From positions 64,001 through 128,000 of the IMG/VR virus record IMGVR_UViG_3300037067_016568: a stretch of 64,000 nucleotides of DNA. One strand, written 5' to 3'. This document shows, one piece after another, positions 6,106 through 61,079 of the stretch (the first letter of the stretch is position 1; each line of letters begins with the position of its first letter). Origin of the DNA: a virus (lineage: Duplodnaviria; Caudoviricetes). Under the pieces are notes generated by a model, which saw only the letters and a list, made by a program, of their open reading frames with translations, had not been told where the DNA came from and did not search any database. The translations under genes were made by a program, and so were the position numbers.

Positions 6106-8154
6106 ATGTTGCTAGCAATCGAAGGATTTGAAGGTTTCGGAACAACAACAGCCTCAGATATTACTACATATTTAGCGGAAAAATTCAGTGATGTGAGTGC
6201 GGGGCCTTTCTACCTAGATGCAGGGCGATATTTCGGGTTTAGTATCTATTCATCAGATACAGATCAATCGCAAACGATACCTTTCTATACTAATACTGAA
6301 GACCCAACGATTGTCATGGGCTTCAATTTCTTTTGTAATGCTGTGACACCCGTAGCGCTTATAATCTTTTATGCTGGTACTACACCAACTCTCGCATGCA
6401 CTATCAAGTGGAGTACAGTTACAGCTGGAGAGCTATCAATTTATGATTATAATGATACTCTTCTAGGGACTACAAGCGGTGCGGGGCTTGCATTGGGAAC
6501 AAAATGGCACTATGTCGAAGCCAAGGTCATTTGCAATGCTTCTACAGGCAATGTAATTATAAAAGTCGATGAAAAAGTCAAACTGGAATTAGACAATATA
6601 AACACAAGCAATTCATCAAGTGACACAGCTTATTCTAAAGTTAGTGTAGTTGTTGCCAACCAATACAGAATGGACGATTTCTATATTGCTGACGGAACTG
6701 GATTTAATAATGATTTCTTAGGTGAAAAAGCAGTAGTCGGTTGTTTGCCAATAGGCGATACAGACACGATAGAATGGACCCCAAGCACTGGAACAACTCA
6801 CTATGACTTGGTAAATGAGAATCCAGCCGATGGCGACACAACTTATGTGTCTGATTATGGCATAGGATACACCGATCTTTATCAATATTCAATAGACCCA
6901 AACGTAACAGTGATCTCTGGAATACAAATAAACACAATAAGCAAGCAAATTAGTGGGTCAACTGTAGGAGGTATAAAAGGTGTTGTTGGGTTTGAAGGCT
7001 ACGCCGATGACGAAGTAGCACAAATTGTTTCATCATCTTACAGTACTAAAATCAGGATAATAGAGGAAAAATATTTAGCTATACCTTATTGTAAAAAGAT
7101 CACGATCTCACACACGAATGTTGCTGATACTTTAATTGATTTCCCATTATGTGTGAAAATTGAGGGTGATACAGATATTGGTGCGATATGCTTATCATCA
7201 GGTGATGATATTTTCTTCACTGATGCAGATTTCAATGTACTGTATGCAGAATTAAATAGCCCTTTTACAGTCAGCAGTGGTGCAGCCTCAGGTATATTCT
7301 GGGTCAAAATACCTAAAATTCTTTCTACAGCTGATACTATGATTTATTGCTTCTATGGCAACAAGGCGGCGGCGGCTAGAACGGGCATGACATCAGTTTG
7401 GAATGCTGATTTTCAAAATGTGTATCATTTTGGAACGAGCTCATCGCTGATTTTAACAGATTCAACCATCAATGCAAATACAGCTACTTCGACGAGCGTC
7501 ACTGCTACTGATGGCAAATTCGATGGTGGTGCTAATTTTAACGGATCTGCTTATCTCACTATACCAACTGCTTCTTTAATCGGTACGCCTCAATTTACCA
7601 TTTCATATTGGGTGAATATTACAACGCTTGGAGATGGTGGTATATTTTCCAAGGGCAATTGGAATGCCTGGGAAAATGATATGTTGTTTGTTATGGATGG
7701 CAGTTATAATCAGTGGTATCAAATTGACTATGGCGCAGATGGCGGTCCCAACATAGGCACTAACCCATATTCTACGAACACTTGGTATCGCTATTCCGTC
7801 GTATATGATGGCACACAAACAGATGCCGATCCTACTATACAAAACAATAAGCGTGTGAAAATATGGAGGAATGGAATACAACAGACATTAGACTTCGCTG
7901 CTTATAACGCTCCAGCAACAACATCTCCAAGTATGCCGGTTAACGGAAACCTTGGACAGTATATGTGCAATAATGGCTTCAGGCTTCGCGGCAAGTTGGA
8001 TGAAGTGCATATTTCAAATACTGCATATTCTTCTGCATGGGTGGTTTTCGAGTATTGCAATCAAAGTTCTGGCGAAATAACATGGGGCGAACAAACTACT
8101 CCTAAATGGTCCGCAACCTTATTTAATCGAGTCGGCATTGGTATAAAGATATAA
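6106..8154 (+). CDS. type A paralog carrying an inserted DUF2341 + LamG cassette
   Basis: First ~325 aa align with 5081..6103, followed by YCKKITIS..DFPLCV..FWVKIP..LRGKLDEVHIS; the final residues resume the type A C-terminus. Confidence 0.7.
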   Translation: MLLAIEGFEGFGTTTASDITTYLAEKFSDVSAGPFYLDAGRYFGFSIYSSDTDQSQTIPFYTNTEDPTIVMGFNFFCNAVTPVALIIFYAGTTPTLACTIKWSTVTAGELSIYDYNDTLLGTTSGAGLALGTKWHYVEAKVICNASTGNVIIKVDEKVKLELDNINTSNSSSDTAYSKVSVVVANQYRMDDFYIADGTGFNNDFLGEKAVVGCLPIGDTDTIEWTPSTGTTHYDLVNENPADGDTTYVSDYGIGYTDLYQYSIDPNVTVISGIQINTISKQISGSTVGGIKGVVGFEGYADDEVAQIVSSSYSTKIRIIEEKYLAIPYCKKITISHTNVADTLIDFPLCVKIEGDTDIGAICLSSGDDIFFTDADFNVLYAELNSPFTVSSGAASGIFWVKIPKILSTADTMIYCFYGNKAAAARTGMTSVWNADFQNVYHFGTSSSLILTDSTINANTATSTSVTATDGKFDGGANFNGSAYLTIPTASLIGTPQFTISYWVNITTLGDGGIFSKGNWNAWENDMLFVMDGSYNQWYQIDYGADGGPNIGTNPYSTNTWYRYSVVYDGTQTDADPTIQNNKRVKIWRNGIQQTLDFAAYNAPATTSPSMPVNGNLGQYMCNNGFRLRGKLDEVHISNTAYSSAWVVFEYCNQSSGEITWGEQTTPKWSATLFNRVGIGIKI

Positions 8155-31600: not shown

Positions 31601-32701
31601 CAAATGGCCGGTAGATGGATCGGTAAATGTAGTGGCTACAGCTGTTGTACTTTTCAGAGTCACAGCCTGTGATGCTTGAATTCTTTGCTCTTCAATATAA
31701 CGCCTTGTCTCAGCATTTCGCGATTGAGATTGACAATATTCTAACGCACAACATAGAGCTGCCTTTTGTTCGTCAAAAAGTCCAGCCATTACTGAAAGCC
31801 AAAACTGAACAATATTCTCACAATCACTTTTAATAGCAGCTACTTCGCGATTGAATTCAGTCTCAATCGATTCTAAAATGCCTGAAACATCTAAATAATA
31901 AACTTCCTGTGAATTGCTATAACAAGTATCAGGGAGCCATGTGATAACAGCCTGTGATGCAGTTGTTGGGAGTGCTACTAGCCATGTACTGTTAGACGTA
32001 GATGTCAGTTTAAGTTGTGATGGGCATGCATCTGGATTACCTATGATAGATCGTGTAACTACTAAATAGTTCTCTGTTTCACTTATTTCTTCAGTCCCAA
32101 TAGAGGTAATAGCGCGAGTAACATTTTGATTTACTCTTTCTAACGATGCAGGTTCCGGTTGGATAGTGATACTAAATGGCGCATTCGCGCCGTCATCGCC
32201 AGCGGGACCATTAGGACCGTATGGCAGATAATCTTGTCCTCGCGGACCGGTGTCACCCTTATCTCCTTTAGGACCACGAGGTGAGCGAACCACAAAACGC
32301 TCACTATCGATCATAAATTGAAAGAATGCTGTGGTATCGATTGTAAAGTTAAATGCATAAGTGTTCTGATGAATCTGTCTCGTAATCGTAGAAACATCGC
32401 TTATCTTAGCATTGCTGTCTATTTTGACATATTCATCGCCTTCTACCAAAGCGATAGTACCACTCGAAAACGCATAATCATACCCAGCAACAGTGATAGT
32501 AGTTTGAGGTGGTGGGACAATCAAGCCATTTAATTTTTTTAAATCGCTCGATGCCATCAATCCAGACATCAACGGCGTAGCGAGTGTTATGGTGCCTCCC
32601 TCTTGCTGATGCCAGATGTGCAGAATGGCATCGTAAACATAGGTAAGACCATCTTCTACCGTTACTACATCACCGTTTTTAGGATTCGGAGGGAAAGGCA
32701 T
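28673..32701 (-). CDS. tail-fibre-like virion protein with collagen-like repeats
   Basis: MPFPPNPKNGD..YVYD..W N-terminus, GLMASSDLKKL, GPKGDKGDTGPRG collagen segment, Cys-rich coiled coil, Ig-like segments. Confidence 0.65.
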   Translation of the reverse strand: MPFPPNPKNGDVVTVEDGLTYVYDAILHIWHQQEGGTITLATPLMSGLMASSDLKKLNGLIVPPPQTTITVAGYDYAFSSGTIALVEGDEYVKIDSNAKISDVSTITRQIHQNTYAFNFTIDTTAFFQFMIDSERFVVRSPRGPKGDKGDTGPRGQDYLPYGPNGPAGDDGANAPFSITIQPEPASLERVNQNVTRAITSIGTEEISETENYLVVTRSIIGNPDACPSQLKLTSTSNSTWLVALPTTASQAVITWLPDTCYSNSQEVYYLDVSGILESIETEFNREVAAIKSDCENIVQFWLSVMAGLFDEQKAALCCALEYCQSQSRNAETRRYIEEQRIQASQAVTLKSTTAVATTFTDPSTGHLTTITNESIDSTAQSIVIDGQPRQSGRSIVNTTIMDQSCGEGYGANNIHNLPNNLDPVGGSACIPGIILSSDGKALKYDECPPGFIPRYVARDAVLTSSAAEVPDTEYPADYNTALDIPETGSGSSTVYQGAIYGKITPGVNLYLPPGVSLARKLAVNAFRSNNPVTSSELRVTITGSPLSLCKSVVVSVKSTNGTTLAYGQTNSDGDIYFKNLSSLEQYNITLEKDGCLFAPDGWSLVQPNTLQITQLTSTATTGVTTTPVQQIVKCSSGSNVLVVTVSGDAEAINSTWVSVRYYTTGYPLCSAYAGTSTTNQGEIVFTGIPDGLWIIYAGTDDTSETDPNYYVVDQPCNPVANPVSQQAYELRSCKTVQFAHRTDGGQNLARMTFNVLTYAKPASSWVLESSIPAELVSPGDSRFEALVRQQILADPNASMSLSEALSAFDVNEPVVLKIESDAEFKIYYTKGFGADYRDNLGEITFRDGNFFDKLFNGVYNICIVRQAGDISSFNLEAITKNVRFLQGAGDGWSNAFIQTNRRIVAAQGPLEAWWLQIRVEHPLPLQPPYSASCGSVGPRISKTDKRFCRELPNGTGNILTRDFVISDGSLATWFTSRCEKELVPDAITMTIGSPFAVDNLILCRVAHNAYSGGFNFDAPNKKSVQIIVEQVDPVSVEPGQFTDRVGGSDYRCTILGWNSQDCLGDVSNFGSVIVNANCSKWSIDGLWSMAGTEVKFKAYAVENLLHDDSIELILDVDEGNQGFFKAATGELPKGEYVVDITDCCFRSGDQYTGHIEIEYQSNNGKATKRFPNLGAFTEQDVARSNYRGLTIEIDHQGGEVIAKLVSPVLLDGSGKISVRFTTKDLFVKNDFEFQSFDDSCAISYAQVRMMEGWHLTQTPGIVVDIAGQDYIITRQYIDGMQLCIEKYNRPVFAWPTLDGSHFAGIPESGVVLYKRISQLEQIAKEAMGNPDDVDIILFPVIS

Positions 32702-33195: not shown

Positions 33196-36100
33196 CTACG
33201 GGCTGCCGCAATCTGAGCATGGAATTGTCGTGTCGACTACCTTAGCACATTCAGTGCTTCTATAGCTACTCCACCAAGCGTCATCACCCACATGGAAAAT
33301 AGTATCATTATCTTTATTTAGAAAATAAACAGTGGCAGTATTTATCGCTTGCAACCACCTACCACTGTAATCTATTTCTACAACCAATGGGTGCCTGTAT
33401 CCATATGTCGTGTACCCTGAGGCCGGAACGGTGCATTCTAATTCCAACACAGCAGCATTAATTTCATCTGACATTACAAATCCAACGTCAGTTTCAATCG
33501 TATCGACAGAATCGGTCAATCTAGGGCCAATCCATCGACCCAATTCTTCATCATAGTATGACAGTGGCGACGACTGATCTACCTCAACACCATGAGTTGT
33601 ATTGTTATGTTCTGATACGGCTCGATTGATCCAATATACCGAGTCTGGCCGCATCGATTCTGTTGTATCTAATAAGACAGCTATTAAATCAGGGCAACTT
33701 GCTCCATTATTTGTGATTTCATTGTAGAATTCTATTATATCAGTGGCTGTTACACGTTTTTGACCAAAGCCACGCCAAGGAAGAACTTTATGAGTAATAG
33801 TTCCTTTACTGTCTTGTGGAAAACTGCCATCTTCTATCGACGTGTCGACGTTTGTCCCCCAAGAAATATCAGGTAAAATATCATGCTCATCTTCTTGATA
33901 ATCGTGAGCTTTATCTATAGTCCAGCCTTTTGTCTTCGAACCGTCGGCGTCTGCATATTGGTCAGGGCCGCGATCCGTTTGCTCATAATAAACAGATTGT
34001 CCTGGATTTGCTAACTGTAAAACACCTATCGTCACCTGCTGTCCAGAACATAGTGAGCTAAGCCATGTATTCCATCTTGACTTGTCATATTTATAATTAT
34101 CGTATCCTTGATTGAATCCACTACCTTCATAACTGACGTATCCATCGTTGCTTGTTGGTGTAGTTGGACAGTTAGATTCATCAGTAATAACGAGTATCAA
34201 CATTTGATACGAAGCTGTCGGAATATACGTAGGCTTTGGCATCCAATAATAAAGCAATTGCTCAGCTATACCAACAGCTCTACCAAGCCAACGCTCAGCC
34301 GCATCAATAGTCGATCTTACATACAAAGTCGGAAATAGAATCGACTGCTTAGCAGGCGATACATACTCCCAACCCCATAAATAAGCATCACTTGCTTTCT
34401 TCGTTGTGTAACCGTCAATTACTGGTGGAACAGCTAATTCGCCAGCTTTGTTTGTTCCTATATCAACAGTATCTGTTGATATGTGTAAATTAGGATAAAC
34501 CTTCTGGATTAAAGAAACACCGGCATCAACAGTATCATTCACATTTGTGGGATTACCTAAGGAACCTGAGGTATCAACAACAACATATAAAATTGTAGGT
34601 GCATAATCACCATTATCTATGATATTATTAAACACTGCCAACATATCATCAGCAGTAAATGACGCGGCGCTCGTTTGAGCTATCGTGATTTTGTTCCTGT
34701 CTGTATCACCGGGCCACGATGCGTTGCTCGGCTTTAAAGCGCCGCCTAACGGCGGATTACCGGCATATCCTTTAGGTTGCAGGATGCCTAATCGAATTTT
34801 ATTGTCGCTGCCTTGTAAAATTGCCAGGTAATCTTTCCACTTTGCTGCATCATATTCCCAAGCTGTCGTATTTGGCGGTATCCCAACTGGTCCACTCACA
34901 CCATCCGGTCCTTTATAACCGCTATAGCTATAAATCGGACTTGCTTCATCTGTTATACACATAATGACAACACGATCATTGCCAGGTATGGTAACGGACG
35001 GACATTGTGAACACATATATCTGCTAGCTGTCTTCGTTGCATCAACTAACCATCGATCATCTTGATTGTGATCTGGTGATGACGAACCAATGGTAGAAAT
35101 AAAACAGATGTCTGGATATAGCTTTTCTAACTCTGCAACAGCATCATCTAACGCTTTTTGCTCTTCTAATGCGTATTCGGCGACTTTGCTCATTGCTTTG
35201 GATTTAAACAAAATATTTATCTGATTAGGCAAAAAATCACTGCCGCAAAGCTTAATCGGCCTAGAATCATCATCATAATCGATATTAGTAAGCATCTTCT
35301 CCACAAAAGTTACAATATTGCTCGACGTAATCTTTGGACTTTGCACAGATAACAGATGATAAAATGTATGATCTCTCATAGAGTCATACGGTAAAGAACA
35401 TTCTGCACACAGCATATCACGCTCATCGCCATAATAGGCAGTATCAGTATTAGGGATTTGAAGCAATCCCAAGGCAACAACCTGGTTTGAAGTCAAACTA
35501 TTGATAAACTTCTCCCATGCTGCCTTATCGTTATTATAATAATTTACTATAGCTAGGTCTTCGCTTGGTATGCCGGTTACATATACTGGATTCGCTTCAT
35601 CAGTAATGATTATCTGCATCATGCGATACGGCAACAAGCATTTAGCTGGATTGGTAGGATCAAATGGTGCAGAAGCAGAATACTGCGTCCGCACTAATGC
35701 AGTATTGTCTGACACAGATGACTCATCATCAGATCCAACAGCCAAAGTCGTGACACCTGTTGCACCAGGAGCAGGTTGTGGCGTCTGACCTGCCTGAACA
35801 ATAGGAACCACAACGTCAATCTTAAGCACTACATCTGTACCAGCATTATGTGTTGTAGCTGTAGTACTATCATGTCCTCTTGTAACGGTCCAGATAGTAG
35901 TGCCAAATCCACCAGTAACTAGCATATGCTCGGTACCGACCATTACAGTATATGATTCATCTGTAGGGAATCCAGCATATGAATCAACGCCTATTTGCGT
36001 ATCAGTTTCAGAAATGTCAGATACTATTTTCGTATTTGCTATTCCAGTTGAGCAATCAGATGGAGCTATACCAAGACAGAATTCTAGAGGGCGCTGAAAT

Positions 36101-37185
36101 TCGCATTGTGCCACTTGTTGTGCTATCGTCGCTAGAGCTTCTCTGGCCGCTGCATCCTTGCTCTCAATATACGACTTCATCTGGGCCATCCATATGTCCT
36201 GAAACGACGCCAGCTTCTCTTTATATGAATCAACAACAACTTTAACCAAATCACTTAGTTTTGTCAATTCAATTGATGAAACCTCTCCAACCTGCAAATC
36301 TGGTGACATCTTTACAAGCAGCACATCAGCTGTATCTGGATCGGACAGTGGGTCTCCGTTTGGATATGCCAACACCCAATCATCCAGCGTGACATAATCT
36401 TTTCCGTCCTCTGGAATAGTTGGATATGAAAGCGATCTCTGTATCGGTTGCGCAGATAATTGGTCCGCTGGTGCCGTATTGGATGGCACATTCATTTTGG
36501 CAGTTGTATATGACATCAGCCCGGCTGTTCCGTCCATGCGTAACGCAACCACTGCTGTGTCGACTATATCTGATGTATCAACAACTTTAATCCCGCTGAA
36601 AGTATGGGCGACTGTTGCATCTAGCCCAGCATCACCTTTCTCACCTTCCGGGCCATCATTAAACCCATCAATGCCAGCGGGCCCTGTAGCTCCTTTTTCA
36701 CCCTTTCTGCCAATAGGCCCAACCACTTCTAGACACAGAGCATCTATAAAATTCTGACTGAGCGAAAATCGCAATCCTGACAAATTAGTACCAGAAGCAT
36801 CATCAGGCAGTGCCTGCCCTAAATATGGTGCTCCGTCTGCATCGATACATTCAATGTTCAGACTATCACTATGTAATTGGACTTGCCCGCTGACTAGACC
36901 AACCTGATTATCAGGAGACCTAATTATTGCACCTTGTTCGGTAACAATTCCAAATGCACCAGCAATAACAGGAATAGAATCTAAGAACCTCTTGCTTTGT
37001 GAACTCATCAACCCTGTCGTATTGACATCGGCCAATGGATAGGTAGTGGCAGTACCTATATTAACCCAAACGTCAAGGTCAGCCGTCCATCGCCATCTTA
37101 CCAGGTTCCCGTCTACCCATATCTGGCCATCAACTGGATTTGTAGGCAATCGATTAGATGTAGAATTCTCGTTTTGTATAGACAT
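33196..37185 (-). CDS. tail-fibre-like protein with collagen repeats and three vWA-like modules
   Basis: LPTNPVDGQIW, GLMSSQSKRFL and GxxG collagen segment paralogous to 28673; ITDE x3 with DTSGS/DTTES MIDAS-like motifs. Confidence 0.65.
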   Translation of the reverse strand: MSIQNENSTSNRLPTNPVDGQIWVDGNLVRWRWTADLDVWVNIGTATTYPLADVNTTGLMSSQSKRFLDSIPVIAGAFGIVTEQGAIIRSPDNQVGLVSGQVQLHSDSLNIECIDADGAPYLGQALPDDASGTNLSGLRFSLSQNFIDALCLEVVGPIGRKGEKGATGPAGIDGFNDGPEGEKGDAGLDATVAHTFSGIKVVDTSDIVDTAVVALRMDGTAGLMSYTTAKMNVPSNTAPADQLSAQPIQRSLSYPTIPEDGKDYVTLDDWVLAYPNGDPLSDPDTADVLLVKMSPDLQVGEVSSIELTKLSDLVKVVVDSYKEKLASFQDIWMAQMKSYIESKDAAAREALATIAQQVAQCEFQRPLEFCLGIAPSDCSTGIANTKIVSDISETDTQIGVDSYAGFPTDESYTVMVGTEHMLVTGGFGTTIWTVTRGHDSTTATTHNAGTDVVLKIDVVVPIVQAGQTPQPAPGATGVTTLAVGSDDESSVSDNTALVRTQYSASAPFDPTNPAKCLLPYRMMQIIITDEANPVYVTGIPSEDLAIVNYYNNDKAAWEKFINSLTSNQVVALGLLQIPNTDTAYYGDERDMLCAECSLPYDSMRDHTFYHLLSVQSPKITSSNIVTFVEKMLTNIDYDDDSRPIKLCGSDFLPNQINILFKSKAMSKVAEYALEEQKALDDAVAELEKLYPDICFISTIGSSSPDHNQDDRWLVDATKTASRYMCSQCPSVTIPGNDRVVIMCITDEASPIYSYSGYKGPDGVSGPVGIPPNTTAWEYDAAKWKDYLAILQGSDNKIRLGILQPKGYAGNPPLGGALKPSNASWPGDTDRNKITIAQTSAASFTADDMLAVFNNIIDNGDYAPTILYVVVDTSGSLGNPTNVNDTVDAGVSLIQKVYPNLHISTDTVDIGTNKAGELAVPPVIDGYTTKKASDAYLWGWEYVSPAKQSILFPTLYVRSTIDAAERWLGRAVGIAEQLLYYWMPKPTYIPTASYQMLILVITDESNCPTTPTSNDGYVSYEGSGFNQGYDNYKYDKSRWNTWLSSLCSGQQVTIGVLQLANPGQSVYYEQTDRGPDQYADADGSKTKGWTIDKAHDYQEDEHDILPDISWGTNVDTSIEDGSFPQDSKGTITHKVLPWRGFGQKRVTATDIIEFYNEITNNGASCPDLIAVLLDTTESMRPDSVYWINRAVSEHNNTTHGVEVDQSSPLSYYDEELGRWIGPRLTDSVDTIETDVGFVMSDEINAAVLELECTVPASGYTTYGYRHPLVVEIDYSGRWLQAINTATVYFLNKDNDTIFHVGDDAWWSSYRSTECAKVVDTTIPCSDCGSP

Positions 37186-37240
37186 AGAATGATCCTGCTT
37201 TTCCCTATATTTCCTCCCAGTATCTACACTACTATTATGG

Positions 37241-37408
37241 CTACGATGTTGGCTTTTTTACGAGTGCCAAGCACAGTAGCCAGATAATAGCAGCAATAAT
37301 ATAGGTGCGGACATCTACGACAAAGAATTCCGCCAACTTGACAGCACCAATATATGCCAAAATCAACAACAAGACAGATGCCAAAATTGTTGATTTTGTG
37401 TGCTGCAT
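37241..37408 (-). CDS. small two-TM membrane protein (55 aa, not in the ORF track)
   Basis: MQHTKSTILASVLLLILAYIGAVKLAEFFVVDVRTYIIAAIIWLLCLALVKKPTS; starts 1 nt after the upstream stop. Confidence 0.6.
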   Translation of the reverse strand: MQHTKSTILASVLLLILAYIGAVKLAEFFVVDVRTYIIAAIIWLLCLALVKKPTS

Positions 37409-37409
37409 A

Positions 37410-37814
37410 CTACTCGCCATCCAATTTATTTAACTGATGGGCAAACGCCATAATGGCTTTGTTCGAACTTCCATGCTCCAAGATATGATGCCCAAGAGCT
37501 ATACAAAAATCAACATCGAGCAATATTGGTATGTAGTCAGCCATTACCAAAAATGCTCCAATTTGGAACGAAAAGGGGGTTTTACCGTTGGCCTTTTCAT
37601 GCCGCTCCACAGTCCGATCGTGAGACGAAGACCTTCTTTCTGGCTCCGGCTCAAAATCGAGCTCTGGTTCTAGCTCATCGGCACCGTATGGGTTTTGGGT
37701 CTGGTCATCTTCAGGCTCATCTGTCCTACGAGGACAAGTTTTTTCGTGAAGAGTCAAGCCAGATTTGCTCTTAACGGGCTTTCCACAAAACCTGCAACAC
37801 AGTTGTTGGTTCAT
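37410..37814 (-). CDS. C2HC zinc-finger protein
   Basis: CRFCGKPVKSKSGLTLHEKTC. Confidence 0.6.
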   Translation of the reverse strand: MNQQLCCRFCGKPVKSKSGLTLHEKTCPRRTDEPEDDQTQNPYGADELEPELDFEPEPERRSSSHDRTVERHEKANGKTPFSFQIGAFLVMADYIPILLDVDFCIALGHHILEHGSSNKAIMAFAHQLNKLDGE

Positions 37815-37888
37815 CGCTAGCTTTCTATAAAAATGGGTGTCACTTATAACTAGAACTCATAAAGAGTCAAGCATGCAAAGATACATTT

Positions 37889-53692: not shown

Positions 53693-54484
53693 CTACCAAT
53701 CTCCACCCGCTCCACCCCCGCCGAAATCGCCCCCACCGCCGCCGTAGCTGCTGGTTCCGCTATCACTACTACCGCTGCCCAAACTGCCGAGAATTGATCC
53801 GATAACTGCACCATCACCATCCACTCCACCAGATTTCAACAACACGACAATAATAATGAGAATAACAATGATGATAATTACGATTCCAAGCCAAGTGGTC
53901 CAGAAGCTCGTTTCAGCAGGTGGTTCTGGAATCGCTGCTACTCCTCCACCGCCTATCTGTACGTTGATGGCATTGACTGCTCCTACGATACCAGCGAAAT
54001 AATCACCAGCCTTGAATTTCGGTTTCACAACATGTGCTAAGATACGACGGCATGATGCGTCAGTTAAATCTCCCTCCAGCCCACGACCAACTGTAATCCA
54101 AGTCTTGTGTTCTTCTACAGCGATGACAAACAAAACGCCGTTGTCCTTGTCCTTCTGTCCGAGCTTCCAGCTTATAGCTGTTTCAAGTGCGAATTTCCCA
54201 ATTTCTTTACCGTCCAGTTGTGGTACAATTAGAACCACAATTTGATTGCCGGTTTTTTCCTGGATTGCTAACAAATTCTGACTGACGGTTTCAATCTGAG
54301 CATCAGTCAGTAATTTAGCGTCGTCATTGACCGGGCCACGAAGCTGTGGTGCTGTTTCATTAGCATGTGCGGCCCGATATGCTTTCCGAATAGCCGGTAT
54401 CAAAATCGCCGTCAAAATACCTATAATAAATATGACAACTAACAACTCTATAAGTGTAAAACCACCCCTATCGCGTATCTTCAT
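53693..54484 (-). CDS. TPM (YgcG-like) domain protein with prepilin-type N-terminal cleavage/methylation motif
   Basis: RGGFTLIELLVVIFIIGIL; VNDDAKLL..WKLGQKDKDNGVL..VGRGLEGDLTD; TM helix; GGGGDFGGGGAGGDW tail. Confidence 0.88.
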   Translation of the reverse strand: MKIRDRGGFTLIELLVVIFIIGILTAILIPAIRKAYRAAHANETAPQLRGPVNDDAKLLTDAQIETVSQNLLAIQEKTGNQIVVLIVPQLDGKEIGKFALETAISWKLGQKDKDNGVLFVIAVEEHKTWITVGRGLEGDLTDASCRRILAHVVKPKFKAGDYFAGIVGAVNAINVQIGGGGVAAIPEPPAETSFWTTWLGIVIIIIVILIIIVVLLKSGGVDGDGAVIGSILGSLGSGSSDSGTSSYGGGGGDFGGGGAGGDW

Positions 54485-54556
54485 ATCTTTTATCCTTATG
54501 ATTCAGTGCGCTCGTTAGCAGGCTAAAAGCGCTCTCGACATATAGATATGTTCATC

Positions 54557-55159
54557 CTAGAATTCAACCTTCGGCGTTGTTTTATCGGTTTCTGAGACCT
54601 CTAAACGTTCAGCTTTCTTAAAGTTATGAAAGCTGGCGACCAATTGACTAAAAAAGCCGCCGCAAAGAGTATTGTAATCCTTCACTGCCTTGTTATATCG
54701 TTGTCTAGCCTCATTGATACGGTTTTCCGTCCCTTCAAGCTGCGATTGCAAGTCCTTAAAATTTTCATTTGCCTTTAGATCAGGATATTTTTCTTGAACT
54801 AGCAAAAGCCGCGATATAGCCGACGAAAGCTCGCCCTGTGCTTCGGCGAATTTTCTCATTTGCTCCGGGTCTGTCGCAGCGGCATTGATATTCACTTGAC
54901 CTACCTTGGCTCTCGCCTCGGTCACAGCAGTGAATGTTCCTTTTTCATGCTCTGCATATCCTTTGACCACAGCAACGAGATTAGGAATAAGATCGGCTCG
55001 TCTCTTGACAGTAGCACCGACATTATCAGCCTTTTCGTAGACCGTATTGATACCGTTGTTCAAGTCATTGTATGTGCTTCTCCATGAGAGTACCACAATG
55101 AGAGCGACCACAACAAACACAGCAGAAAGGCCAAGTAACACATTCGAGCAACTTTTCAT
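54557..55159 (-). CDS. lemA: LemA family protein
   Basis: N-terminal TM, RRADLIPNLV..VKGYAEHE, YPDLKANENF..LEGTENRI..R.RYN. Confidence 0.95.
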   Translation of the reverse strand: MKSCSNVLLGLSAVFVVVALIVVLSWRSTYNDLNNGINTVYEKADNVGATVKRRADLIPNLVAVVKGYAEHEKGTFTAVTEARAKVGQVNINAAATDPEQMRKFAEAQGELSSAISRLLLVQEKYPDLKANENFKDLQSQLEGTENRINEARQRYNKAVKDYNTLCGGFFSQLVASFHNFKKAERLEVSETDKTTPKVEF

Positions 55160-58204: not shown

Positions 58205-59617
58205 CTATTGGAGGCTGACCTGCTCTAACGATGCTATAAATCTCAAAAAGTGTTCAGACCATCCGGCAATCTCAGCCGTCCAAACGCCCTTGTAATTGAT
58301 ACCAAGTGCATGCGAGGACACATCAATCACGTAATTCCTTTTGCCGAATGGTTTTGGTTGCCGACGCTCCGGCCAATCACAATCTTGTGAATCGCTGAAA
58401 ATGAGCAACCTGTCTGGCGTCTCCTCTTTTTTACTAATATGTTCACAAACTTGTCTGGTGAAAATACCACCACCGCCCAAATGGTGCTTAAGGTTCAATA
58501 TCTCGTCCGCCAGAGCAAAACCTCGAAGTGGTTTAACTTTTTGAGTATGATGCTCACGCGAATAGTCATTGCCTGCCGTAGCATAAACGGAGATATGATC
58601 GCAACATTCTGCAGCTAAGACAGCCATGGCAGCGGCTGCATCCATTCTCGTGAATTCTGACTTATCGGAAAGTTGATTTCCCATTGAGCCGGAAACATCG
58701 ATCACTAAAGTCGTGAAGCCAGGGAAACGCGGCCACGTCTTGGTGCATCGATACATCAAATCCTCGATTTCTCGTGACCAGTCGGGAGCATACTTTCGAG
58801 CCTGCAAAAAATTTATCGGCAGTAGCATGTCTACCTTACAATTTTTGAAAGCTTTAGCGATTGCATCACGAGACACACTTGCTTTCTGCATATTCCGCAG
58901 ATTCCGCAGGAAAGCAAGTGCTGGAAGCCTCGACGACTCAATCAGTCGCTCCCACACCTTCCGCTTTTCATCTTCGCTTTTAGCTGCAGATAACCCAACT
59001 TCCCACGTATCTGGGACGGCAAGCTCATTGGCGATTAGCCGCTTATATAATCCTTCTCGATCTTTCGTCGGCTTCGCATGTGAGAGGAATAAAACGTCTC
59101 GTAGTTTTACATCTTTATCAAGTCGATTATATTTGGCAAGCTGGTATTCATCAAACTTGCCAAATGCCTGCGCGAGACCCTTTTTTACTTGTGCGGACAA
59201 AGTTTTCAAAACGTCGCCGCCTACCGTTTCGCCATTATCAGACCAATACAGGGCTAAAAACTCGGTCATCTCGTCTGGTCTGTGACAGATCTTAGCAAGC
59301 GTATCGGCGACACCCGGCATCCCATGACGAGCCATTTCACGCACAAGCAATAGCGGGACGTGTCGCAGCTTCTGCTTAAAACGAGCCTCTATAGCCATTT
59401 CGCCAACACATGGAACCTTGGGCACCAGCGCCTTGATTTGCTCAACAATCAGTTCGCCATCACAATATGCATTCTTTTCCCATAATAGGCATGACATAAC
59501 AAGACGGCGCAGGGTAGCTTCGTCACTCTGCTTGGCGGCTCTTGGACCATGGCCACCAGCCAGTCTCTCATCAACATAAACATGCGATTTCTTCGTCTTT
59601 TTATTGATGGTTGCCAT
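58205..59617 (-). CDS. rsr: Ro60-related TROVE domain protein with vWA domain
   Basis: TROVE features (LRHVPLLL, RPDEMTEFLA, FDEYQLAKY, LRDVLFLSHAKP, PDTWE, LAFLRNLRN), vWA MIDAS IDVSGSM..FSDSQ, GWSE; GGAGG SD; adjacent Y RNAs. Confidence 0.95.
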   Translation of the reverse strand: MATINKKTKKSHVYVDERLAGGHGPRAAKQSDEATLRRLVMSCLLWEKNAYCDGELIVEQIKALVPKVPCVGEMAIEARFKQKLRHVPLLLVREMARHGMPGVADTLAKICHRPDEMTEFLALYWSDNGETVGGDVLKTLSAQVKKGLAQAFGKFDEYQLAKYNRLDKDVKLRDVLFLSHAKPTKDREGLYKRLIANELAVPDTWEVGLSAAKSEDEKRKVWERLIESSRLPALAFLRNLRNMQKASVSRDAIAKAFKNCKVDMLLPINFLQARKYAPDWSREIEDLMYRCTKTWPRFPGFTTLVIDVSGSMGNQLSDKSEFTRMDAAAAMAVLAAECCDHISVYATAGNDYSREHHTQKVKPLRGFALADEILNLKHHLGGGGIFTRQVCEHISKKEETPDRLLIFSDSQDCDWPERRQPKPFGKRNYVIDVSSHALGINYKGVWTAEIAGWSEHFLRFIASLEQVSLQ

Positions 59618-59640
59618 CTACGTTATCCTCCGTTACGCTA

Positions 59641-60054
59641 CTGTAGTCCATTCAGAAGTATTCCCTGTAGTCCTGTAGTTAGCTGGGAACGAACGATATT
59701 CTCCATTGCGACCGGCTCAGCATCGTGTTGTCGCACTCCTGTAGTCCTGTAATCCTGGGAACGAACGCTATTCTCCATTTTGGAAACGGCCTAACTCGTC
59801 TATCGTTCCCTGTAGTCCTGTAGTTACCTGGGAACGAACGCTATTCTCCATTAGGGAAACACCTCAGTTGAACCACCTCACTCCTGTAGTCCTGTAATCC
59901 TGGGAACGAACGCTATTCTCATTTTCCTGCGCCAATGGCCTGCTAGACTTCTCCTGTAGTTACCTGGGAACGAACGCTATTCTCCATTCAGACGACCTTG
60001 ATGACCGCCAAGCTTGACCCTGTAGTTACCTGGGAACGAACGCTATTCTCCATT
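59641..60054 (-). CRISPR. CRISPR-like repeat-spacer array without cas genes (6 repeats plus 1 collapsed, 5 spacers)
   Basis: Plus-strand consensus CCTGTAGTTACCTGGGAACGAACGCTATTCTCCATT (36 bp) at 59672, 59746, 59817, 59891, 59953 and 60019. The first four are preceded by an extra CCTGTAGT. Unique spacers are 30, 29, 30, 29 and 30 nt. A collapsed repeat CTGTAGT-CCATT lies at 59641. Strand is inferred from the operon. Confidence 0.7.
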
Positions 60055-60092
60055 TCGCTGTCAGGTGGTTCCCATCACCCTATGTATCAAAA

Positions 60093-60226
60093 ATGCTGCG
60101 GGAACAAGCGAAACAGGCTAGTTTAGCGCTCTGCCAATTGAGCTACACGGACAAGCCGTGATTGGATTCGAACCAACAACCGCTCGATTTCAAGTCGAAG
60201 TAACCCATCTCTACACCACGCAGCAT
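60093..60226 (-). ncRNA. yrlA: YrlA-type Y RNA with circularly permuted tRNA-like domain
   Basis: Terminal stem ATGCTGCG/CGCAGCAT; T-arm GTTGG-TTCGAAT-CCAAT precedes the closed acceptor-like stem CACGG/CCGTG and D-arm GCTC-AATTGGCA-GAGC; next to rsr. Confidence 0.85.
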
Positions 60227-60231
60227 ATTGA

Positions 60232-60299
60232 GAGCCGGGAACAAACTTACACGGCTTTTTCTTCATGGACCGAAGTAACCGTATAATCCACCACGGCTC
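60232..60299 (-). ncRNA. minimal Y RNA lacking the tRNA-like domain
   Basis: Terminal stem GAGCCG/CGGCTC with the same TGGNGNA, GGTTACTTCG and GTTTGTTCCC motifs as the YrlA copies; no T or D arms. Confidence 0.7.
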
Positions 60300-60302
60300 A
60301 AG

Positions 60303-60375
60303 TAGTGGGGGTCGGATTCGAACCGACGACCTGCAGGTTATGAGCCTGCCGAGCTACCAACTGCTCCACCCCACA
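60303..60375 (-). tRNA. tRNA-Met(CAT), initiator-like
   Basis: Cloverleaf TGTGGGGTGGAGCAGTTGGTAGCTCGGCAGGCT-CAT-AACCTGCAGGTCGTCGGTTCGAATCCGACCCCCACTA; U1:U72 mismatch and A11:U24 pair; CCA not encoded. Confidence 0.9.
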
Positions 60376-60378
60376 TCA

Positions 60379-60588
60379 TCAATTGTAAAGCTCCGGATAC
60401 AAACCACGCAAAAAATCTGTGAATTGCACTAACCCACCATACTGATCCAGCAATCCAGATTTGCACGCTCGGTCTTGTATATCCTCTAAAACGAATCTGA
60501 TCTGTGCGTCTGTAACTGGCCGACCATCTGGAAATAATGCTTCCAATCTTTCCAGACGTTGTTCAACTGTTAAATCCGCTGTCTTCAT
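60379..60588 (-). CDS. small hypothetical protein within the Y RNA cluster
   Basis: ~69-aa ORF (LTVEQRLERLEA) filling the gap between a Y RNA and the tRNA. Confidence 0.55.
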   Translation of the reverse strand: MKTADLTVEQRLERLEALFPDGRPVTDAQIRFVLEDIQDRACKSGLLDQYGGLVQFTDFLRGLYPELYN

Positions 60589-60604
60589 CGTTTTTACTTT
60601 CAAA

Positions 60605-60741
60605 TGCTGCGGGAACAGGCGAAACAGGTCAGTTTTAGCGCTCTACCAGCTGAGCTACGTCAGCCGTAGGCTGACGACTGGACTCGAACCAGCGACCTCT
60701 CGATTAGGAATCGAAGTAACCCATCTCTACACCACGCAGCA
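60605..60741 (-). ncRNA. yrlA: YrlA-type Y RNA
   Basis: TGCTGCG/CGCAGCA stem; T-arm GCTGG-TTCGAGT-CCAGT; acceptor-like CGTCAGCC/GGCTGACG; D-arm TAGCTCAGCTGGTAGAGC. Confidence 0.85.
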
Positions 60742-60751
60742 ATATCAAAAA

Positions 60752-60862
60752 TGCCGCAGGAATAAGCGAAGCAGGCTAGTGCTCCCGTGAGCGACGCCCC
60801 CATAAGGGAGGGGGCGATTGGAGTCGAACCAACGAAGTAACCCACTCCTTCGCCATGCGGCA
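60752..60862 (-). ncRNA. yrlA: YrlA-type Y RNA, compact variant
   Basis: TGCCGCA/TGCGGCA stem; GGCGAAGG Ro-site-like motif; T-arm GTTGG-TTCGACT-CCAAT; CGCCCCC/GGGGGCG stem; short D-arm GCTC-ACGG-GAGC. Confidence 0.8.
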
Positions 60863-60878
60863 AGTTCAATTGTCAAAA

Positions 60879-61016
60879 TGCTGCGGGAATAAGCGAAATA
60901 GGCAACGTTAGGTGCTCTGCCAACTGAGCTACACCAGCCGTAGGCTTAGTGACGGGACTCGAACCCGCGACCACCCGCTCCATAGGCGAAGTAACCCATC
61001 TCTGCGCCACGCAGCA
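60879..61016 (-). ncRNA. yrlA: YrlA-type Y RNA
   Basis: TGCTGCG/CGCAGCA stem; T-arm GCGGG-TTCGAGT-CCCGT; D-arm TAGCTCAGTTGGCAGAGC. Confidence 0.85.
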
Positions 61017-61017
61017 G

Positions 61018-61079
61018 TACTATTTAAATACATGCGGCCAATCTTGTCAAGTACTATCATATGACGCCACATGTGTCAA
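61018..61079 (-). promoter_or_regulatory. putative tandem sigma70-type promoters for the Y RNA/array/rsr unit
   Basis: Two perfect minus-strand TTGACA hexamers (61079-61074, 61050-61045). The proximal one starts ~34 nt from the 5' end of the first Y RNA. The -10 boxes are imperfect. Confidence 0.5.

Follow-up and report, generated by a model that had tools for sequence, protein, structure and literature searches.

The locus raises two questions: which system makes use of a short CRISPR array lodged between a cluster of Y-RNA-like genes and the gene for a Ro60 homologue, and what its guides may do. The window, that is, the whole stretch of 64,000 nucleotides that was analysed, covers bases 64001-128000 of a 184,768-bp IMG/VR record with a CheckV completeness of 51%. 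The source is a huge phage with a genome of roughly 360 kb, of which the record is a fragment of 184.8 kb. The array (array 5 of the record) occupies positions 59664..60054 of the window, is probably read from the minus strand, and consists of six repeats, whose core is 36 nt long, with five unique spacers between them. An earlier, sequence-only reading had already placed the repeats and spacers here, and on re-reading the coordinates agreed exactly. A CRISPR array in general is defined by at least three near-identical direct repeats of 23-47 nt with unique spacers of comparable length between them, which is the pattern seen in the window array.

The repeats, given here on the minus strand, are not all alike. 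R5 (59953-59988) and R6 (60019-60054) are canonical 36-mers and are letter-identical to repeats of the main arrays of the phage. R1 to R4 are variants that share an 8-nt duplication of the 3' handle, joined by two substitutions in R1 (59664-59707), by a 2-nt deletion in R2 (59738-59779) and by a 1-2-nt deletion in R4 (59883-59924); R3 (59809-59852) carries the duplication. Of the minus-strand spacers, S1 (59708..59737, 30 nt) stands behind variant repeat R2, S2 (59780..59808, 29 nt) behind R3 with its handle duplication, and S3 (59853..59882, 30 nt) behind variant repeat R4. S4 (59925..59952) has a canonical handle upstream, that of R5, and its length is 28 or 29 nt because of the deletion in R4. 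S5 (59989..60018, 30 nt) is leader-proximal and lies between two canonical repeats, and is therefore the best-supported guide. Directly upstream of the array in the minus sense, comparison of the flanks revealed a leader-like motif (60055..60082, minus strand) of about 27 nt, which is common to arrays 1, 2 and 5 on their Y-RNA-side flanks and whose core on the plus strand reads GGTGGTTCCC..CACC. At the opposite end, within the 5' leader of rsr, a repeat head is joined to a repeat tail (59635..59652, minus strand). This collapsed remnant of a seventh repeat marks the decaying trailer end of the array.

The spacers behave as guides and not as structural modules. The sequence-only reading had described the five as richer in G+C than the phage, and this was confirmed (0.551 versus 0.442; P = 0.005 for five random 30-mers). 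With all 24 genomic spacers included, the G+C content is 0.524 (P <5e-5). The high G+C of the spacers suggests that their targets belong to a genome with more G+C than that of the phage. The earlier observation that no spacer match could be seen by eye in the window holds for the whole 184,768-bp record, in which no protospacer was found, also when 16-nt seeds and one mismatch were allowed. In contrast, the claim that several spacers form hairpins was not borne out by mononucleotide shuffles, since the five MFE z-scores ranged from -0.9 to +1.2 on both strands and the mean z in the shuffle test was about 0 over 20 spacers; hairpin-forming spacers were dropped as a candidate because their folds are at shuffle level. 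The complementary ends described for S1 do exist as a 5-bp complement, but they do not exceed chance (one of 20 spacers, with 0.34 expected; P = 0.3), and the terminal pairing described for S2 requires the first base of the next repeat as well as a bulge and is worse than that of shuffles (z +1.06). When spacers were gathered from three related phages (the IMG/VR record analysed here, termed G000, together with G001 and L134), all 54 were unique. None is shared among relatives, and none folds beyond chance. The five spacers of the window are genuine CRISPR guides. Targeting of RNA had also been considered, and nothing pointed that way. Most spacers of the three phages have 29-31 nt, the full range being 16 to 44 nt, and some repeat units are without the 5' part of the repeat, which fits the view that only the 3' handle of the repeat and the initial part of the spacer are important.

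The repeat core occurs in 28 copies in the record, all on the plus strand and distributed over five arrays. The four further arrays, built on the same 36-nt repeat, lie at genome positions 31633-32255, 33561-33806, 37136-37552 and 37728-37874, about 86-92 kb from the window array. Between them, with arrays on both sides, are two minus-strand genes encoding proteins of 453 and 380 aa, 86 kb from the window array. No Pfam match was obtained for either protein. The two are paralogues, the 380-aa protein being 30% identical to the 453-aa protein. The 453-aa protein matched the AsCas12f structures (7WJU, 8DZJ, 8J12) at E 4e-9; with a profile built from eight relatives the match to AsCas12f improved to E 1.3e-14, and every significant PDB match was a Cas12f.

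Alignment to AsCas12f was then read at the catalytic positions. At RuvC-I, the GIDLG of AsCas12f stands opposite VVSGG, which replaces Asp by Ser; at RuvC-II, the position of the Glu falls within TYQP, which replaces Glu by Gln. The alignment stops at about residue 362 of the 422 residues of AsCas12f and the 453-aa protein ends about 13 residues later. Because of this early end, the RuvC-III Asp and the zinc-finger/TNB part are missing. Both paralogues are without all three RuvC catalytic positions and without the C-terminal zinc-finger region. The same condition was found well beyond this phage. An exhaustive profile search returned 372 cluster representatives, 181 of them at E <= 1e-30, nearly all 400-500 aa long. 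Not one of 151 aligned representatives has both acidic RuvC residues; in these a Q-P at RuvC-II is near-invariant and lengths are around 430 aa. These naturally dead and truncated Cas12f relatives make up a family of considerable size that is under selection. A peptide-word search of IMG/VR found no close relatives of the 453-aa protein. The 380-aa paralogue has a small family of its own, which occurs on the same contigs. Two of three distant family members sampled adjoin arrays, with repeats that end in CUACAGG or CUGUAGG, a handle of the CUACAGG-like kind found here. An ECF-type sigma gene lies 3 kb upstream of one distant member, L142. The proteins of G000 and G001 gave no Sigma70_r2 match, and r4_2 matches were sub-threshold only and far from the locus.

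Relatives of the phage were reached through rsr, the Ro60 gene next to the window array, whose homologues led to two huge-phage contigs, G001 (363,885 bp; completeness 100%) and G002 (234 kb). In G001, a dead-Cas12f pair, a tracr-like RNA and three array groups built on a related repeat are found about 10 kb from rsr, and this arrangement of pair, RNA and arrays recurs in L134, a contig of an ENA assembly. The tandem pair of diverged paralogues is always kept in these two phages and the present one. The spacers differ among the three while the repeat family is kept. G000 and G001 are colinear elsewhere, but the CRISPR locus lies at different genome positions in the two, and G001 has a solo repeat far from its CRISPR locus. 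The exact two-repeat pattern was absent from 185,579 species genomes, where a search of this kind would overlook diverged repeats, and from the remaining IMG/VR records. Neither Cas1 nor Cas2 was found in G000, in the complete G001 or in G002, and no Cas9 (TIGR01865) was found in any of the three.

An RNA element of about 80-85 nt accompanies the protein pair. It is present in two copies in the record, one directly upstream (in the minus sense) of array 3 and the other between the two genes of the pair; G001 has four copies and L134 two. Sequence identity among the copies is 93-98%, whereas that of the proteins is about 50%. The predicted fold comprises a 7-bp hairpin with the loop CCUGU, a second long hairpin, the tail AGAGUUACC and a terminator-like U tract. 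The loop CCUGU and the 3' tail AGUUACCU complement, in two parts of 8 and 5 nt, the final 13 nt of the repeat as read in the minus sense (AGGUAACU-ACAGG), the end that abuts the spacer. A compensatory change supports this pairing: the repeat of the relatives, AGGUGACU, corresponds to a tail of AGUCACCU, and the tail/repeat pair that is U-A here is C-G in G001 and L134. The tail duplex has an energy of -10.7 kcal/mol against -6.1 kcal/mol for shuffled repeats (P 0.03) and the loop duplex alone is not significant, so that the energy test is a weak one. The stems of the tracr-like RNA show no covariation, because the RNA is so conserved. In size it differs from the tracrRNA of Cas12f, which has about 140-170 nt, as opposed to about 80 nt and a split anti-repeat of 13 nt here. 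The variant repeats, four of six in the window array, lose most of the tail pairing, and for this reason S1 to S3 may be poorly used.

These observations bear on the strand from which guides would be made. Several G-U pairs of the duplex between the repeat and the tracr-like RNA are possible only in the minus sense. There is also a polarity in the array, with canonical repeats and the shared leader motif at the Y-RNA end and degenerate repeats and the remnant at the rsr end. The neighbouring genes are without exception minus-strand genes. Because of the complementarity to the tracr-like RNA with its G-U pairs, the degenerate repeats at the rsr end and the leader motif opposite, the guide RNA of the window array is probably the minus strand. 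A TATTCT hexamer, pointed out earlier as -10-like, is indeed present in each repeat; as a -10 element it probably lies on the wrong strand, and no plus-strand promoter was called. Plus-strand promoters in each repeat were accordingly rejected, the promoter scan having called none in the array.

The surroundings of the array belong to a Ro60 module. The rsr gene (58205..59617, minus strand) encodes a Ro60 homologue of 470 aa with TROVE and vWA domains (TROVE E 2e-15), its start codon follows the array at a distance of 46 nt, and its homologues in G001 and G002 are 71-73% identical. Upstream of the array, a Y-RNA-like cluster extends over 60090..61017, all on the minus strand. It contains YrlA-like RNAs at 60872-61017, 60752-60860, 60606-60741 and 60090-60226, a mini-Y RNA at 60236-60298, a tRNA-Met at 60303-60375 and a 74-aa ORF at 60379-60603. 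A sigma-70-like promoter was recognized by reading the sequence at about 61020-61050, also on the minus strand. In the minus sense the order is thus promoter, three YrlA, 74-aa ORF, tRNA-Met, mini-Y, fourth YrlA, leader-like motif, array, Shine-Dalgarno and rsr. The 'tRNA-Ser' called by ARAGORN is the tRNA-like module of the fourth YrlA. The 3' end of this fourth RNA has a long stem and a U5 run, a candidate terminator just before the array; since transcription may end there, the array may or may not be co-transcribed with the Y RNAs. In G001 and G002, YrlA-like RNAs are likewise found upstream of rsr, with small ORFs in place of the array. From this comparison we infer that the position between Y RNAs and rsr may be a lineage-specific placement and not a conserved part of the Ro60 module. 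The similarity between the repeat and the Y RNAs is at chance level in a shuffle test (best local score P = 0.34; shared 6-mers P = 0.5).

Searches for targets were partial in coverage, and the absence of matches in them is not proof that targets are absent. Protospacers with a shared PAM had been named beforehand as evidence to look for. No credible match was obtained in any collection searched, and hence no adjacent motif could be derived. Against INPHARED phages and PLSDB plasmids, the window array gave only matches with E>=1. In the same two collections arrays 1-4 gave no credible match; one alignment of 34/37 to a Streptomyces plasmid extends 7 nt into the repeat and was read as chance. 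The 20-nt handle-proximal seeds of S1-S5 had zero matches in IMG/VR. In JGI metagenomes, searched with the S5 seed only, there were six contigs representing two distinct sequences, from genomes of 64-71% G+C; they were rejected as targets, since only 3-4 of the next 10 nt match, the flanks are unlike and the count is about that expected by chance. Nothing at E<=1e-3 was found in 1,203 bacterial genomes, 401 from each of three phyla, represented by a Planctomycetota, an Oscillospiraceae and a Prevotellaceae genome. Neither at full length nor with 16-nt seeds did G000, G001, G002 and L134 show any targeting of themselves or of one another, the single 16-nt seed match being at the level of the shuffled control. 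As to the host, relatives of LemA are at most 50-56% identical and scattered over many phyla, so that they do not point to one, and a look-up of the TPM protein in the Atlas gave no indication either.

Several other explanations of the array have to be weighed against this evidence. The sequence-only reading had put forward, as its main alternative, an orphan mini-array, type II-C-like, that makes use of a Cas9 of the host. A geometry of 36+30 is compatible with it, the start of the plus-strand repeat loosely resembles type II repeats, and TATTCT recurs in every repeat. This alternative is now extremely improbable, as the phage encodes Cas12f homologues of its own beside the same repeat, related repeats flank such genes in three phages, and no Cas9 was found in G000, G001 and G002. 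The long anti-repeat or tracrRNA expected of type II was looked for, and antisense matches to the repeat do not exceed 13 nt in the record; moreover, no promoter was called on the plus strand, the wobble pairs fit the minus strand only, and the two-repeat pattern is absent from the 185,579 species genomes and from IMG/VR. It is also highly improbable that the units are Ro60-bound RNA modules, whose repeats mimic the terminal stem of Y RNA and which are no CRISPR array at all or else target RNA. This was suggested by the location of the array on one strand between four or five Y-RNA-like genes and rsr and by a GUUCCC common to the repeat and the 3' strand of Y RNA. However, the resemblance of repeat and Y RNA does not exceed chance (P = 0.34 and P = 0.5), the array is absent from relatives that have rsr and Y RNAs (G001, G002), and the repeat family accompanies the Cas12f-like genes and not rsr, with spacers that are unstructured and match no phage RNA. 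Preferably, the repeat is assigned to the dead-Cas12f system of the phage.

Within this assignment it may still be asked whether the system, or the window array, has a guide function. The dead pair, the RNA and the arrays might imitate a type V-F system of the host and soak up or misdirect its components, as a form of anti-CRISPR. Inactivated Cas homologues of phages have been proposed as such mimics (PMC10910872, PMC12669027), in one case a phage Cas9 with a dead RuvC (PMC10910872), and a decoy would agree with a system that has no adaptation genes (cas1/cas2). Diversity of spacers would be superfluous in a decoy, whereas all 54 are unique and turn over between relatives; the family has a conserved RNA partner of its own, and none of 185,579 species genomes, as potential hosts, has the exact two-repeat pattern. 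We regard mimicry as very unlikely. The window array may, on the other hand, be the decaying relic of a CRISPR locus once near rsr and may no longer supply working guides. The weakened tail pairing of the variant repeats R1-R4 and the collapsed seventh repeat in the rsr leader are what such decay would leave. The main locus lies at different places in the otherwise colinear G000 and G001; in the latter it is still within about 10 kb of rsr, and a solo repeat is found there far from it. Against decay, R5 and R6 are identical to repeats of the main arrays, the leader-like motif is retained, and the spacers, five unique sequences, have normal lengths. Active arrays, too, commonly have degenerate repeats at the trailer end. 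A relic is considered unlikely. Finally, the placement itself might be functional, with the Ro60/Y-RNA machinery co-expressing and maturing the array and so feeding the dead mini-Cas12f, a possibility that is quite doubtful. Equally doubtful are its particulars, in which RNase P/Z-type cuts would be made at the tRNA-like modules, a Ro60-tethered exonuclease would trim the 3' ends of the crRNAs, and a heterodimer would silence genes of the host or of rival phages in the course of infection. If true, it would be the first link between Ro60 RNA surveillance and the biogenesis of CRISPR guides.

Taken together, the above results make it likely that the array in the window is a satellite array of the phage's own type V-F-derived, dCas12f-like system, by which DNA would be bound and not cut. 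That the array belongs to the dead-Cas12f system of the phage is, taken alone, highly probable; for the mode of action, binding without cutting and interference with transcription, the balance tips only slightly in favour. This explanation is supported by related phages, in which gene pair, RNA and repeat family recur together with spacers that differ from phage to phage. Counting against it are the failure to find a protospacer, the short and split anti-repeat, the variant repeats, the candidate terminator before the array, the distance of 86 kb to the effectors and the incompleteness of the record. According to this explanation, the window array would be transcribed on the minus strand, from the promoter upstream of the Y RNAs or from the short leader-like element. 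The transcript would be converted into crRNAs with a repeat-derived 5' handle and a guide of which the first 16-20 nt or so are important. A guide that needs no more than this part would explain the spacer lengths of 16-44 nt. The crRNAs may form a duplex with the tracr-like RNA and be taken up by the dCas12f-like proteins, with the two paralogues possibly acting as a heterodimer, and the complex would then bind matching DNA beside a short adjacent motif. As the target would be left uncut, transcription or replication of the host or of a rival element may be blocked or redirected.

The closest parallels are found among nuclease-dead Cas12f homologues with C-terminal truncations, which were described by Hoffmann et al. 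(Nature 2026; PMC13472631). Most of these dCas12f proteins no longer have an array and act with a sigma-E partner in RNA-guided activation of transcription, with guides of 14-16 nt and a 5'-G TAM (PMC13472631). A distinct cluster adjoins CRISPR arrays, the guides of which sometimes match efflux-pump promoters, and repression was proposed for it; these are bacterial loci and the description is bioinformatic only (PMC13472631). Compared by description, the present proteins resemble this array-linked cluster (PMC13472631) in the mutated RuvC, the C-terminal truncation, the position beside arrays, the lack of sigma-E and the proposed role in RNA-guided, repressive DNA binding. They differ from it in that the system is that of a huge phage, with tandem paralogues, a short multi-copy tracr-like RNA and scattered arrays, one of which lies in a Ro60/Y-RNA operon. 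For the sigma-E type, no tracr RNA was found by Hoffmann et al. (PMC13472631). That type depends on a neighbouring rpoE whose product has a special C-terminal domain, whereas no sigma gene exceeded the threshold in G000 and G001. The dCas12f-sigma-E systems and the phage-encoded TldR proteins (TnpB-like nuclease-dead repressors) are likewise exapted, truncated and RuvC-dead relatives of TnpB/Cas12f that bind DNA with short guides; their guides are single chimeric RNAs and their arrays are gone, while this phage keeps arrays.

With active type V-F Cas12f (AsCas12f, PDB 7WJU/8J12), the closest solved homologue, the system shares its miniature size, the dual-RNA logic and a 3' handle next to the spacer, and as Cas12f works as a dimer on one guide, a heterodimer of the paralogues is plausible here. 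The RuvC positions and the Zn-finger/TNB are missing, in contrast to Cas12f, and cas1/cas2 were not found. Like the compact arrays of huge phages and Cas12r, the system has short phage arrays without adaptation genes, which are thought to serve in conflict with the host or with rivals. Huge phages reportedly carry compact CRISPR arrays and Cas-poor systems, as Al-Shayeb et al. are said to have described in 2020. Unlike the active nucleases Cas-phi and Cas12r, the latter from Thermus phages (bioRxiv 10.64898/2026.04.20.719267), the effector predicted here cannot cut. The Ro60 surroundings resemble the Rsr/YrlA module, or phage Ro60-Y RNA module, of the Thermus phage phiLo (PMC12135203), in which a TROVE protein is likewise found beside tRNA-like Y RNAs on a phage. 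They differ from the Ro60 modules described, none of which is known to contain a CRISPR array, in that an array lies inside; this array is missing from the same operon in G001 and G002.

Nuclease-dead relatives of Cas12f have only recently been recognised as RNA-guided regulators of transcription, and the array-linked ones have so far received a brief bioinformatic mention. In the literature searched, the coverage of which was incomplete, no description of a phage form of array-linked dCas12f was found. Features not described in those papers are the pair of paralogues as a possible heterodimer, where Cas12f normally acts as a homodimer, the short multi-copy tracr-like RNA, the lack of adaptation genes, and the scattering of arrays over a genome of more than 300 kb, with one of them in a Ro60/Y-RNA operon. 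If the guides do silence genes of the host or of rivals, the system would be a natural and very compact viral CRISPRi, and its targets would reveal what huge phages switch off.

The repeats of the window array are not all identical. Within positions 59664-59952 two variants, A and B, alternate in the order A-B-A-B, and copies of the same type have 3-4 nt in common past the repeat border: type A copies are preceded by TTC and type B copies by CACT. Both observations hint that the array grew by duplication and recombination rather than by Cas1-Cas2 insertion, and growth of this kind fits with the lack of adaptation genes. Spacer S1 (window 59708-59737) and a spacer of the related huge-phage sequence L134 (L134:9780-9807) both begin with AGTGCGA in guide orientation, agree at 11 of their first 16 nucleotides and are each preceded by a variant repeat with ATTACAG; S3 likewise begins with AGTG. 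About 0.09 shared 7-nt spacer starts are expected by chance among all pairs. The start common to S1 and the L134 spacer may be due to descent of the unit from one ancestor, or to chance.

The handle-proximal part of S5, next to the repeat, has exact 20/20 matches in six JGI soil metagenome contigs (L136-L141), which represent two unrelated high-G+C sequences. Because none of these matches extends beyond 20 nt and the flanks are unlike, they are read as chance. At 20 nt, the match is nevertheless as long as the guide with which Cas12f-type proteins work.

Parts of the repeat also recur outside arrays. A 27-nt motif occurs as five solo copies in G000:C1, the phage record itself, outside the window and on both strands (near 208, 3431, 12782, 14330 and 48808). 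Its first 13-15 nt equal the end of the CRISPR repeat that pairs with the tracr-like RNA, and TTTGTAAAATAC comes after them. These copies might be guide-like units that stand alone, or else promoter elements. Over 9 nt, the tracr-like RNA (L009:13561-13654, minus strand) reads the same as the 5' part of this phage's repeat (GAGAAUAGC) and not as its complement; this identity may be left over from an origin of the RNA in a repeat.

Next to the array, four YrlA-like RNAs and a mini-Y lie on the minus strand at window 60090-61017, each with a long stem at its end and then a U run. They score 22-43 bits, below the Rfam threshold of 69 bits, yet they neighbour a TROVE gene. What ARAGORN called 'tRNA-Ser(tga)' at window 60152-60226 belongs to the fourth YrlA-like RNA as its tRNA-like module. 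Elsewhere in the window (53693-55159, minus strand), two genes are found side by side, one of the LemA family and one with a TPM domain. The TPM-domain gene carries an N-terminal prepilin-type methylation motif, and the bacterial relatives of LemA that match best reach only about 50% identity and are scattered across many phyla.

Two phage-like contigs, L142 and L143, encode proteins that belong to the dead Cas12f-like family as distant members (E values of 1e-86 and 1e-65 to the family profile). Arrays with 72-74-bp periods lie beside these genes (L142:1513-2097 and 6412-6669; L143:2413-2816), and CUGUAGG or CUACAGG forms the end of the array repeats. For one of the two members, a gene for an ECF-type sigma factor is located 3 kb upstream.

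The CRISPR-dCas12f locus occupies 31-38 kb in G000 and 199-205 kb in the related phage G001; the positions differ, whereas the genomes are otherwise colinear. In addition, an isolated repeat that has the leader-like flank is present at G001:C1:137461, far from the G001 locus. Judged from these positions, arrays or the whole CRISPR-dCas12f locus appear to move within these phage genomes.
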